A stretch of 14,310 nucleotides of DNA from a virus, in UHGV virus genome UHGV-1656152. The stretch is one strand, 5' to 3'. How positions within the stretch are numbered: the first letter of the stretch is position 1; the number at the start of each line of letters is the position of its first letter. Below are positions 6,001 through 14,310 of this stretch, piece after piece. The position numbers were made by a program.

Positions 6001-9000
6001 ATCTTGCTCAGTCCGGTGTTGACCCGTCCAGTGGTCGCTTTAACGCGGTAATGAATGCGAACCAGAGTGATCAGGTAACAGGGCAGATTGACACAACCAC
6101 ACGGGGGCAGGTATCGCAGGCAGATAAGTATGTTGCCGGGCTACAGGATGTTGCTGCTCTCGGTTCTGGTCAAAAGGCGGATGCGTTACAGAGTTTTAAC
6201 TCGCTGGCAGACAGCAGTCTGGCAAAAGCTAAATCGGACGCACAGGCTGCGTTTACGAAACAGCAGGGGCGAGCCTCTCTTGTTGGCGCTGGTTTGGGTG
6301 CGGTAGGTGCATATGCGATGTATAAGGCTGGCGGTAGCGGAGGAAGTGGCGGTGCTAAAACACCTGGCACCGGCGCTAATGCCATTCAGCATCAGGCTCA
6401 GAACTGGAGACTGTGATTATGGAGTACGGTAAATACGAAACACTTGCGAGATACGGTTATACCGGAGCTGCCCGTCCACAGGGTGACTGGCAGACGTCAG
6501 CAGCGCTGACACGCCAACAATACGACGACTGGCGAACCAGATATTTGCCCCGCGTGGCAAGGCTGGCTGACCTTGGCGAGAACAACAGCCTGATGAATGC
6601 ACAGCTTGCCCGGGTGGGCGGCCTTGCCACTTCCAGTCTCCGTACAGCGCAGATGGCGCAGGATAACCAGATGGCGAGATACGGGGTAAGCCGCCCGGAT
6701 ATTCACGCTATCAGGAAAACACGGCATTGCGTGAGACCGCCGGAATGGATGTGTCACCGTGGGAGGGCGTGGCTGACGCAACGATCGAAGGTGCAGCCCT
6801 TGGTGCTGCAATGGGGGCACCATTCGGTGCGGCTGCCGGATATCGTGGAAAACGTCAGGCGGCAGATGAAGCAGCCATGCGTGAGGCTGAAAGCGTTCCT
6901 CAGGACGAATCGGCTCCGCAACCCGAACCGGTTGATCCGGTGGCACAGCATCGTGAATCTATGCAGGGGATGAATCGCGAGCAGCTTCTGGAACAGTATG
7001 CTGATGCGGATATGGCACATGAGGGAGACACGTCTGCCGTTCATCGCCGGGAAGCCGCCAGCCAGCTGTTGAATGAACTGGATGAACAGGCGAAGCGACA
7101 GGCGGTGATGGATGAGCTGAAGGCGAAGCCGCGCCCTGAACTGCTTGAGGAATACCGAAAACTCAGCCAGAAGGAAGGGCGTACTGATACTGAAGAGCAG
7201 CAGTTACAGGCAATACGTGATGTGCTTCGCCCTCAGCGGGAGGCCAGACCGGAGGCACAGCCACAGCCGGAAAATGCGGATGATGGCGACGGGAGTATTT
7301 ACCCGACGGTGCGGTTCCGCGATCCGGATGAAGTTCGTATTGAAATTAACGAGAGTGGTGCGTCCAGACCAGCAGAACGCATTGAAAAGGTGCGTCCGGA
7401 CAACCGTTATTTCACGGATGAAAAAAGTGCTCTGGGGAGCGACGTTTTCCGCAATGCCAGCGCCACCGGCCTGAAACCGTCCGTAGTGAAGAAAGGCGAG
7501 AATCAGTATGCCGTTGAAATGGATAATCCTGCGTTCTCTGAAGATGTGGCAACGGAGACCATTAACACTCTGGCTGACGGAGAGCGTATTACTGATGCTG
7601 ATCCGATGGAACAGCCCGCGTTCATGCGTGACCCGCGATTCCGTGGTTTTACGGGGGATGATACAGAAGTGCAGGCCCGTCTTGCTCGTGGCAACGCGCC
7701 GACGGCGGAAGAACTGGTGCGTTCCCAGATGGCTGAAGGTGATGCCGGTCCGACAGCACAGGAGTTAACTGAGCGTCCACGCCTTCCCGCTCCCGGCGAT
7801 ATTCATCCCGGACAGGGATATCCGTTACCAAGAGAAGTAGCGCGTACGCCGGATGAAAATCAGGCCGGACGTGGTGGTCGTTTTACCACAACCGGTGAGG
7901 TGAAGGGCCAGAGTTTCCAGAAAGGACGTGCGCAGGCACCGGAAAATGCCGCTGGTCGCCAGGGGGAAATACTGGAGGGCGAAACAGTTCGTCGTGGTCT
8001 GCCGTCACCGGATGAGCAGAACGCCACAGCACCAGTGCGTGAAGGTCTTCCTGCACCTGAAAGTCAGCGTGGGGTTGATATGCCACAGCCTGAATCACTC
8101 CCTCGTATGGTTCGTGACTCCCTTCCGGAACTGGCACAGCAGGCAGAAGCACGCAGACAGACCGGGGATAATCGCCAGACCATAACCGATGTTCCGGATA
8201 CTGAGGTGCCGGTGCCGGTAGATAAACCGAGCACTCACCAGCAGGCGCGTGGTGCGAAAATTGAAGACTTTGGCGAGGAGATTAAGGGCGCGGCAAAACA
8301 CCGTTATGCGCAGCTTGCTGAAGCTATGGGTAAAACGCTGGAGGATGGGGAGTACGCGACACAACCACTGAGCAAACTGTTTCCAAAGCCGGATTATGCC
8401 CGTCTGGAAAAAGAAGGTGTGGATAGTGACACGCTGGCAATGATGGCGTTGTATCGCAGTGAAATTCCCACCAGAACAAGCCGTAACATGCAGAAATGGA
8501 TCAGCATTGTTAAAAGCGGTCGCGAAGCTACTGCCGGTATGCTGGAGGGGAAAATTCCGGCAGCGAAACTGGCTGATATGATGGACAGTAAGCCGGGGTT
8601 ACGGAGCATGTCGGATACCTGGAAACTGCTCCGTACGCTTTCTGCATTGCAGATTGATAAAGCATCCGGCTATCGTGTCAGGTCCGGTGTTTATTCGTTT
8701 GTCGGGGGAAAACGTTACGATCCGCCGCAAATGATGTATTCGCTTCGTGATAGCAAGGGGCGCGACCTCTTTTTCTCGGAAAGCCGGGATGAGTTACTGA
8801 AAAAGGCGAAAGCATATTTCGATGAACAAGGCTCCAGAGAAAGGGAAACGCCAGCAACCTCTGCTGATGACAGAATAACCTTTGACGTGTACCGGCATAA
8901 GGCCAGTGGCGACATTTTTATCGGTTATGGCAAAAACAGGCAGAAACTGAAGGGCGGTTTTGAGTCTGCCCGTGATGCACATGATTATGTGCGCACACAT

Positions 9001-12000: not shown

Positions 12001-14310
12001 GAAACTGGTGAAACCATTCGCGAAGTTGTCGAGCGCCCTGTGCCGATGGCAATGATGGCGGATCGCTACTTCACCACCAAAAAGGACGGCAAAACTTACT
12101 ACATTAAACTTCATGATCCGCGCCTGATGCGTGCGATGAAGAACATGGGGCCGGAAACCAGTAACGCCGTAATCCGTACGCTGGGGAAAGTTAACCGCTT
12201 CCTGGCAACGGTGAACACGTCGTATAACCCGGAATTTCTGGTCAGTAACTTCATCCGTGACGTGCAGACTGCGGTGATGAACCTGAAGGCTGAGCAGGGA
12301 AGGAGCGACGGTAAACTGAAAGAGCTGGATAACTTATCCGCGCTGGCTGTGGTGAAAGACAGCCGTTCCGCCATGTCAGCCGTATACGCAAGTCTGCGGG
12401 GTAAAACCCTCACGGGCAAAGGCGCACAGTGGCAGAAAGTGTGGAAAGAGTTTGTTGAGGACGGAGGTAAAACCGGCTGGTTTAACATGGGTGACCTTGA
12501 GGGCCAGCAGAAGGAAATGGATCGCCTTGTGTCGCTGGCGAAGGGCGGATGGAAAGGCCAGAGTATCGGTGCATGGCATTCGTTCCTGAACCTGGTCGAG
12601 GATGCCAACGGCGCGGTTGAAAACGCTCTGCGTCTTTCTGCCTATAAACACGCCCGTGATGCCGGTTTGTCACGCCAGCAGGCGGCGTCTCTTGCCAAAA
12701 ACATGACGGTGAACTTTAACCGTCGTGGTGAGCAGGGGATGCTGATGAACTCGCTGTACATGTTTGCCAACGCCAGCATTCAGGGGACCGCAAACCTGGT
12801 GAGAACGCTCGGACATCTTAATGGCGACGGGCCGTTACTGGAGCGCCTTCGCTGGAAGAATCTCAATGTACCGCAGAAAATCGTGCTTGCAGCTGTGGGA
12901 GCGGGTTATCTGCTTGGCTCGCTTAACCGCAGTGTGGCGGGTTAACTGGTACGACAAAGTACCGTCTCATGTGAAAGAGCGTAACCTCGTCATCATGAAA
13001 TCGATGTTCGGGGGCAAGGCCGGTGAGTACTGGAGTATTCCTCTGCCTTACGGGTACAACGTGTTCTTCCTGCTTGGTCATACAGCTGAAGGTGTGGCAG
13101 CGGGCGACCTGACTGCTTCACGTGCTGCCGGTAATGTTGTCGGCGGTATCCTGGGGGCATTCAGCCCGATCGGCAGCGAGACGTCGGAAACGTTGTCGGG
13201 GGCATTGCTGAAAAATGCAGCACCGACAATTCTGCGTCCGTTTGCGAATCTTGCCATGAACGAAAACTTCATGGGGGCGCAGATTTACCAGGAGAACATG
13301 CCGTTTGGTACACCAAAACCTGACAGCCAGCTGGGAAGACGTTCAACGCCAGAAGCGTACAAGGCGTTTGCATTCTGGCTGAATGCGTTCTCAGGTGGCA
13401 GCCAGTATCGTCCCGGCGCGGTGGATATCACACCGGAATCGCTGAAATTCTGGATTGACTATATCTCCGGAGGGACAGGGCGCTTCATTTCCAAAACCAC
13501 GGATGCGGCGGTGAAATCGCTGAATGGTATTGATATACCGGAACAGCAGGTGCCCTTCCTGGGGAAAATTTCGGGTGAGGTGATGCCGTATGCAGACCAG
13601 CAGAAGATGTACGACCGGATGACAGAGGTTGCGCAGTATCACGCAGAGCTGAAGAGTCTGACCGGTGCAGAAAGAACGGCGTTCATTGACGAGAACAACG
13701 GAAAATTGTTGATGAACGGGCTTATGCAGGATACCCGGAAGAGACTGAAGGATTTGCGCAAACAGCGCGATGCCATTTATGCCGACAGTTCTCTCAGTCT
13801 GGCGCAGCAGGCGGCGATGGTGAAATCGGTAGAGCGGGATATGAAGGTTGCCGTGGATCGGTTTAACCGCGAGTACAACAAAAAAGTGGGAGTGGATTAA
13901 CAGAAATGGCCCCGTACGGAAGTGCGGGGCTGATTAAGAAATAAACACACATTAACCTGTAATAACCGGAGCTATTAACATATAGTCAGAAAGAGTATTT
14001 CATGTGAGACAGAGAGCCGATTTATGTTTAATGAAGAAAAAGTTGCGCAAATGGCAGCGTATTTGCTGAAAAAGCATGGCGGATCTATGCGTTTCATTAA
14101 GCTGATGAAGCTGATGTATCTCTCTGACCGCAAAGCAATGGAGTCTTTAACCGGGAAGGGGAGAGGTTTGAATGCTCCCCCACAATTCCCCGGCATCAAA
14201 TCTCCATGCAGGTGAACTATTTTACCCCCAGCGGCAAAATCGCAAAAACAATCAGTGCGATCGAAATGGCAGCCACTACAATTGCAAATGCTTCAGGCTA
14301 GGTCATTGGC

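Follow-up and report, generated by a model that had tools for sequence, protein, structure and literature searches.

Two probable short-homology deletions behind the broken giant polyvalent-protein gene of a Stx-phage-like Escherichia coli prophage

The stretch of DNA analyzed here, the 14,310 nucleotides (nt) of UHGV virus genome UHGV-1656152 (hereafter the window), carries in its second half three consecutive open reading frames (ORFs) on the plus strand, which a first-pass annotation had read as one giant gene split by single-base changes in two short homopolymers. Judged by its sequence, the window can be assigned to the late region of a Traversvirus-type (933W / Stx2-86 / phi24B; Stx-phage-like) Escherichia coli prophage. 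Comparison with intact relatives shows that the window lacks 2,905 base pairs (bp) at one place and 17 bp at another, and the three frames are very likely the remains of two deletions in the virion-protein genes of this prophage, i.e., of ordinary prophage decay.

The three-frame pattern was borne out by the ORF list and by the translations of the window. The first frame (ORF1) runs from ATG 6419, or alternatively GTG 6413, to 6973. The long second frame (ORF2) is open from 6667, the preceding stop being 6664-6666, has TTG 6727 as its first start codon and ends at TAA 12943-12945, which gives 2,072 amino acids (aa) counted from the TTG. The third frame (ORF3) is open from 12803, has an ATG at 12821 and ends at 13900. 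As the annotation had described, the +1 frame turns into good protein directly after the stop of ORF2, from 12944 (NWYDKVPSH...) to 13900, and none of the start codons near the beginning of ORF3 has a convincing Shine-Dalgarno sequence.

The nearest intact relative is a prophage in E. coli 23CRST047 (NZ_AP045820; L001), which is 99.7-99.9% identical to the window in the aligned blocks (blastn). Window 1-6701 aligns to L001 702-7402 with nine mismatches and no gaps, and window 6697-14310 aligns to L001 10303-17933 with three mismatches and one 17-nt gap over 7,631 alignment columns. Further relatives were found by megablast of window 6300-14000 (7.7 kilobases, kb). The region was matched in 186 phage records, all of them Stx-converting or related Escherichia/Shigella podoviruses (Stx2 phage 86 and phi24B, the only records with taxonomy retrieved, belong to Sepvirinae, genus Traversvirus), and in 427 of 5,426 complete E. 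coli genomes; at least 80% of it is covered in the 186 phage records and in 422 of the genomes. Among the matches listed, each consisted of two pieces and spanned about 10.6 kb of the subject, compared with 7.7 kb of query.

The intact gene order in the relatives is 218, 148, 83, 421 and 2,783/2,784 aa, with the giant polyvalent protein last. The RefSeq annotation of 23CRST047 has the 218-, 148-, 83-, 421- and 2,783-aa genes consecutively, the last as an 'LPD5 domain-containing protein'. An identical order is annotated in Stx2 phage 86 and phi24B, and it was called in all ten assembly contigs (10/10) that encode the exact 218-aa neighbour. The 148-aa gene is annotated or called as a separate gene in all relatives examined, and the PHROGs family phrog_616 (2,793 positions) models the giant protein at full length. 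The features of the window are collected in Table 1.

Table 1. Remains of the virion-protein genes in the window, the two deletion junctions, and two neighbouring genes
Feature	Position in window	Strand	Description
5' remnant of the 148-aa gene	6419-6700	+	Codons 1-94; phrog_596, phi24B vb_24B_45 ('gp50')
Junction 1	6700-6701		2,905-bp deletion with TA microhomology; base-by-base extension against L001
Internal fragment of the giant gene	6700-12945	+	Codons 379-2459 of 2,783; LPD5, LPD1, MuF_C; native start absent
Junction 2	12939-12942		17-bp deletion; one GGGT copy of a 4-nt direct repeat is left; alignment to L001
3' fragment of the giant gene	12941-13900	+	Codons 2465-2783 and native stop; +1 frame relative to the upstream fragment; LPD38
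218-aa gene	5760-6416	+	Intact, directly upstream of ORF1, outside both deletions; orthologue of phi24B vb_24B_44 ('gp51')
Hok/Gef-family toxin ORF	5070-5210	+	46 aa (MSQKSLITVTICMTVIFTIWMLHGSLCEFRLNLWGAEFAAFLQCKQ); between lom and the 133-aa gene; annotated in a relative

At junction 1, the left flank matches L001 through window 6701 and the right flank matches back to window 6700, so that the two overlap by the 2 nt TA. The segment lost from the window, L001 7403-10307, begins in the 148-aa gene, of which it takes codons 95-148, includes the 83-aa and 421-aa genes in full, and extends through the intergenic start region into the giant gene, where codons 1-378 are gone. In every relative the two flanks are separated by 2.9 kb; the window instead connects codon 94 of the 148-aa gene, out of frame, with giant-gene codon 379. 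Over exactly 94 codons ORF1 agrees fully with the L001 148-aa protein, after which wrong-frame giant-gene sequence follows up to the stop at 6971-6973; ORF1 residues 1-94 match phi24B vb_24B_45 over residues 1-94 only (98.9% identity, blastp). The annotation had regarded the frame from 6419 as protein-like for about 100 codons. This is true protein, but it ends after exactly 94 codons, at 6700, and what follows is out of frame.

The proposed cause of the first frame change does not stand up to this comparison. The annotation had placed a slip at the A4 run 6716-6719, which proves to be unaltered giant-gene sequence (...TATTCACGCTATCAGGAAAACACGG...) also present in L001, and the deletion joint at 6700/6701 sits 15-19 nt upstream of it. 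The join ...SRPDIHAIRK-NTALRETAG, taken to be ancestral, is a misreading, as IHAIRK is the giant protein's YSRYQEN read out of frame. ORF1 is not a part of the giant gene and instead represents the 5' remnant of a separate, conserved 148-aa gene. An ancestral gene at 6419-13900 of about 2,493 codons therefore never existed; the ancestral giant gene has 2,783 codons.

Junction 2 falls within the giant gene, at codons 2459-2465. The missing sequence is GGGTGAGGATGATGACG, and a GGGT direct repeat bounds the deleted segment. The intact gene reads GCG-GGT-GAG-GAT-GAT-GAC-GGG-GTT-AAC (A-G-E-D-D-D-G-V-N) and the window reads GCG-GGT-TAA-C, i.e., the residues E-D-D-D-G are lost from the linker before LPD38, the frame is shifted, and the premature TAA 12943-12945 is created. 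Flanking anchors are 93 nt apart in all 12 relatives aligned (12/12), each of which is single-frame here, compared with 76 nt in the window. Putting the 17 nt back turns the two frames into one of 2,407 codons, uninterrupted up to its only stop at the end, and its product differs from the L001 protein (WP_032179512.1) only by G756R. Because the single ORF of the relatives runs continuously across this junction, ORF2 and ORF3 are pieces of one ancestral gene. The view of the three ORFs as one split gene thus holds for these two, but ORF1 comes from a different gene. Likewise, the check that the annotation had proposed, whether homologues form a single ORF across both junctions, gave a continuous ORF at junction 2 but separate genes at junction 1. 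The annotation had also pointed out that one nucleotide fewer at GGG/TT would fuse the frames. The arithmetic is right, since the loss of 1 nt equals the gain of 17 nt modulo 3, but the true lesion is the 17-bp deletion.

An explanation by homopolymer errors or single-base indels at A4 6716-6719 and GGG/TT 12939-12943, splitting one gene into three ORFs, draws on the short homopolymers that are present near both frame changes, and other lineages do have a true single-base frameshift in this gene, G5 to G6, although its site (window 13198-13202 equivalent) is neither of these two. Relative to the 99.7-99.9% identical L001, however, the window is short by 2,905 bp and 17 bp, where single-base changes would make a difference of 1 nt, and no change of 1-2 nt in a mononucleotide run separates the window from its relatives at the junctions. 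The A4 run is unaltered in all relatives, and ORF1 is homologous to the separate 148-aa gene only. Homopolymer sequencing or assembly error is excluded because the lesions are deletions of these sizes and not one-base changes, and we give practically no credence to single-base slips as the cause of the three frames.

Programmed recoding, in which ribosomes would shift by -1 at junction 1 and by +1 at the TAA of junction 2 and so make a fusion protein, has in its favour that the frames at junction 2 abut with a stop at the joint, which superficially resembles +1 frameshifting at a stop codon. However, a P-site GGU should, by the codon-anticodon rules, be unable to re-pair with GUU after a +1 slip, and the slippery heptamer X-XXY-YYZ is, as the annotation had already stated, absent from junction 1, where the sequence arose from the deletion of 2.9 kb of coding DNA. 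Moreover, a single frame encodes the giant protein in every relative, with a separate gene for the 148-aa protein, and the two-frame arrangements of either junction are absent from relatives. We regard recoding as having next to no probability.

The annotation had ranked inactivating indels in a decaying prophage gene first among its options, and in general terms this reading is supported by the comparison with relatives. Two independent deletions mediated by short homology would have struck the virion-protein end of the prophage. The first, of 2,905 bp at TA, would have left the 148-aa gene destroyed, with the 83-aa and 421-aa genes gone and the giant gene deprived of its start and first 378 codons. 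The second, of 17 bp between the two GGGT repeats, may have occurred in the manner of replication slippage and would have shifted the frame in the acidic linker before LPD38. We infer that both lesions arose by replication slippage or illegitimate recombination at homologies of 2-4 nt; such events at direct repeats of a few bases are an established deletion mechanism. Missing sequence, TA and GGGT repeats at the breakpoints and a disrupted frame are together what is expected of a pseudogene formed by microhomology-mediated deletion, and the giant gene of the window can, on this pattern, be classed as a pseudogene. The damage is recent, because the rest of the window is intact (the other genes keep their L001 lengths of 541, 424, 92, 205-208, 245, 133, 218 and 63 aa) and the identity of the flanks to functional-looking relatives is 99.7-99.9%.

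The exact strings at the two junctions of the window are GCCGCCCGGATATTCACGCTATC and GTGTGGCGGGTTAACTGGTACG. As a 121-nt centred query, junction 1 was absent from the 5,426 complete E. coli genomes and from the 186 phage records, where no place was covered to 80% or more, and the exact 35-nt pattern had zero matches in GTDB species genomes, IMG/VR and JGI metagenomes. It is reproduced base for base in an ENA metagenome contig, ERZ1744996 NODE_2978 (11,024 bp, coverage 2.9x), which was found via an exact look-up of the 541-aa protein of window 161-1786. Over window 1-10151 this contig aligns without gaps and with a single mismatch, at position 21; it ends before junction 2, and its gene call begins the truncated giant ORF at the same TTG as in the window (6727).

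For junction 2, the 121-nt query had no deletion-bearing match in the same complete genomes and phage records; the full-length matches had at most 87.7% identity and spanned 138 nt of the subject compared with 121 nt of the query, i.e., they carry a 17-nt gap. The exact 32-nt pattern had zero matches in IMG/VR. Exact look-ups of predicted products were unmatched for ORF3 from ATG 12821 or ATG 12995, ORF2 from ATG 6745 or TTG 6727, and ORF1 from ATG 6419. Among eight start variants of ORF3 that were looked up exactly, only the product from GTG 12971 (309 aa) and two internal-ATG products are recorded. The 309-aa product was found in the ENA contig ERZ27260189 k119_81620, in which the final 1,372 bases of the window (12939-14310) recur at 100% identity and whose end falls on the same base as that of the window. 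The first ~64 nt of this contig are unrelated, coding-like DNA of 70% guanine-cytosine content, joined to the prophage at L001 16556, which is 6 nt upstream of the window's right junction-2 breakpoint. The contig is without the 17-nt deletion and is probably chimeric.

These searches bear on the only serious rival explanation, namely that assembly or library preparation created one or both junctions (for example through a chimeric read or a mis-join at low coverage) while the gene cluster is intact in the organism. Several points weigh against two real deletions and in favour of such an artefact. Both deletions are known from assembled sequence. The window behaves like a metagenome or short-read contig, and its right end coincides with the end of ENA contig k119_81620, which suggests that it is itself an assembly contig. 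The sole exact public match for junction 1 is the contig at 2.9x coverage, and junction 2 has no second witness among the public sequences searched. The chimeric-looking join of k119_81620, only 6 nt from junction 2, is a coincidence without explanation. On the other hand, two assemblies with different contig ends and a single-nucleotide polymorphism between them agree exactly at junction 1, microhomologies of 2 nt and 4 nt are too short to collapse a de Bruijn graph, and clean losses of 17 nt or 2.9 kb are unusual for short-read errors. Deletion between direct repeats of a few bases is, moreover, a typical biological signature. An assembly or chimeric-read origin keeps a small share of the probability and is on balance unlikely; the deletions are probably real in the organism.

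The nature of the broken gene is best seen in the intact relative. Pfam domains of its 2,783-aa protein are LPD5 at residues 1047-1190 (4.5e-43), LPD1 at 1351-1430 (7.7e-23), MuF_C at 1740-1829 (1.4e-17) and LPD38 at 2466-2671 (2.3e-47). In the window, the first three are found in ORF2 (LPD5, 2.9e-43; LPD1, 5e-23; MuF_C, 1e-17) and LPD38 in ORF3, across fragment residues 1-206 (3.2e-48). ORF2 matches phi24B vb_24B_48 over residues 383-2483 with 88% identity, and ORF3 matches it over residues 2490-2807 with 96.9% identity (blastp). LPD5, LPD1, MuF_C and LPD38 are domains named in polyvalent proteins (Iyer et al. 2017, PMC5512222). The intact relative combines these several distinct effector and LPD domains in one very large polypeptide, whereas two frames share them in the window, whose copy has neither the single uninterrupted ORF of ~2,783-2,811 codons nor its native start. 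The gene lies among phage late and virion genes, with a tail-tip/needle gene, the 541-aa protein (phrog_511, 'internal virion protein'), lom and the 218-, 148- and 421-aa genes upstream. Its C-terminal region has a weak PHROGs match to the DarB-like family phrog_10089 (1.6e-25). A PDB sequence search with the intact giant protein gave no solved relative, and a Pfam scan of it gave no helicase, methylase or RNA polymerase domain.

On this domain content and gene context, the ancestral giant gene appears to encode a phage-type polyvalent protein and is an orthologue of phi24B gp47 (vb_24B_48, ADN68472.1; 2,807-2,811 aa), with which it shares locus, gene order and the LPD5/LPD1/MuF_C/LPD38 domains. 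The same holds for the orthologues in 933W, Stx2 phage 86 (gp35, YP_794082.1) and E. coli prophages (WP_032179512.1). Unlike these, the window copy is without codons 1-378 and the native start and has the 17-nt frameshift before LPD38, and the three partner genes upstream have been truncated or lost. Phage-type polyvalent proteins such as P1 DarB and the N4 virion RNA polymerase are likewise giant, multidomain and encoded among virion genes (Iyer et al. 2017, PMC5512222). Unlike those examples, what is known of the function of the giant protein is its virion association in phi24B, and the window copy appears to be a pseudogene.

Two HExxH motifs lie outside the Pfam domains of the giant protein, HEWFH at codon 1274 (window 9385-9399, plus strand) and HEIIH at codon 1541 (window 10186-10200, plus strand), and may mark the zincin-like metallopeptidase that polyvalent proteins are expected to have. 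The MuF-C domain is called a metallopeptidase in a phi24B preprint (10.64898/2026.04.10.717836) and is described as a PBECR RNase-like domain by Iyer et al. 2017 (PMC5512222). The phi24B record HM208303 also has three short antisense ORFs annotated within the giant gene (vb_24B_50c, 51c and 52c, at 52191-52514, 54666-55046 and 55397-55768), and similar minus-strand ORFs of 100-200 aa occur in the window ORF list (region 6700-13900). These are most likely spurious shadows of the long coding frame.

In phi24B, gp47 is the second most abundant virion protein by spectral counts and is not visible in the cryo-electron microscopy map; the authors propose that it is a capsid-packaged ejection protein (10.64898/2026.04.10.717836). 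The virion proteome also includes gp48 (421 aa), gp50 (148 aa) and gp51 (218 aa), while gp49, the 83-aa 'bacteriocin' homologue, is found only at trace level (10.64898/2026.04.10.717836). Each of the four genes lost or broken in the window thus has a phi24B orthologue that was detected in virions, in one case only as a trace. Because these orthologues are virion-associated and the giant protein is a proposed ejection protein, the prophage is probably defective and forms no infectious particles. A further point on the opposite side is that the basis for this loss of infectivity is virion association in phi24B and not a genetic test of essentiality.

A functional role for the shortened gene was also considered, in which the truncation is a selected variant whose LPD5-LPD1-MuF_C core is translated from TTG 6727 or ATG 6745, the first in-frame start candidates of the internal fragment, and is kept by the host or by a helper-dependent phage. 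The internal frame of 2,072 codons is still open, junction 1 occurs in two assemblies, and the second deletion sits in the inter-domain linker just before LPD38, all of which would fit such a variant. Against this, the native start is gone and, on inspection of the window, the candidate starts of ORF2 are without an evident Shine-Dalgarno sequence. A promoter and terminator scan of 5600-14310 gave fewer sites than expected from shuffled sequence, and none near the new 5' end of the truncated giant ORF. Translation of ORF1 would cross the candidate starts in another frame. In addition, the variant is absent from the 5,426 complete genomes and 186 phages, and the identity of at least 99.7% to intact relatives shows that there has been no time for selection. 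A selected variant is extremely improbable. As junction 1 was seen in two assemblies, the doubly deleted element could also be imagined as a circulating, helper-dependent defective lineage, in which the core is internally started and of benefit to the host (e.g., by superinfection exclusion) and the gene is split at a domain boundary before LPD38; this, too, is very unlikely. The short arrangement as a natural alternative module was rejected, since the fusion does not keep the frame and none of the 186 phage records has the arrangement.

The decay by two deletions that we favour resembles that of cryptic or defective lambdoid E. coli prophages, in which a virion module is likewise inactivated by deletions at short direct repeats, and as in these prophages, neighbouring genes (lom, hok-like, tail needle) are intact in the window. 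Compared with them, nothing is distinctive in the window; the decay is very recent, with flanks 99.7-99.9% identical to intact prophages. The pseudogenization is of an ordinary, already known kind and raises no new mechanistic question. The main value of the result is a correction, in that a 2.9-kb deletion fusing two genes and a 17-nt deletion had looked like one-base slips. A single-base 'repair' of the sequence would yield a protein that never existed. The result also marks the prophage as probably unable to form infectious particles, which is of modest use for judging the mobility of Stx-type prophages from sequence.

Other breaks of the giant gene were observed outside the window. At least 24 contigs have G6 instead of G5 in the LPD38 region (window 13198-13202 equivalent; L016 at ~9927, and L017-L021). 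Among them are contigs of one ENA assembly and of Logan assemblies of five different sequencing runs, and the extra G splits the giant gene into 2,591 + 209 aa. This lineage was reached via the 209-aa product of an ORF3 variant and is unrelated to the deletions of the window. G6 is absent from the 120 complete E. coli genomes that match the segment (the best, at 99.2%, has G5). Here a single base in a homopolymer has indeed shifted the frame, as the annotation had supposed for the window, but away from both window junctions and in other lineages. In one of these contigs (L019; Logan ERR2533845_207, 2517-10630), the giant gene is called as four ORFs (977 + 387 + 1,148 + 209 aa), and blastn to L001 leaves unaligned gaps at about L001 12104-12178 and 13318-13475; this copy may be further degraded, or these stretches may be of low quality. 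PHROGs also has families that cover only N-terminal or only C-terminal pieces of the giant protein, phrog_26030 (992 aa), phrog_20690 (939 aa) and phrog_14770, and the existence of such separate partial families implies that several deposited phage genomes have the gene annotated in split or truncated form. Independent breaks elsewhere fit a recurrent decay of a very large target gene.

Among the neighbouring genes, the 46-aa Hok/Gef-family ORF is also called with PF01848 in other contigs. Rfam at gathering thresholds gave no RNA family in the whole window, and hence no Sok-type antisense RNA. L001 has the 218-aa gene in the corresponding place, the single mismatch being at window 6080. Its protein is 96.3% identical to phi24B 24B_44, and the exact 218-aa sequence is recorded in 1,703 blocks of the assembly collection.

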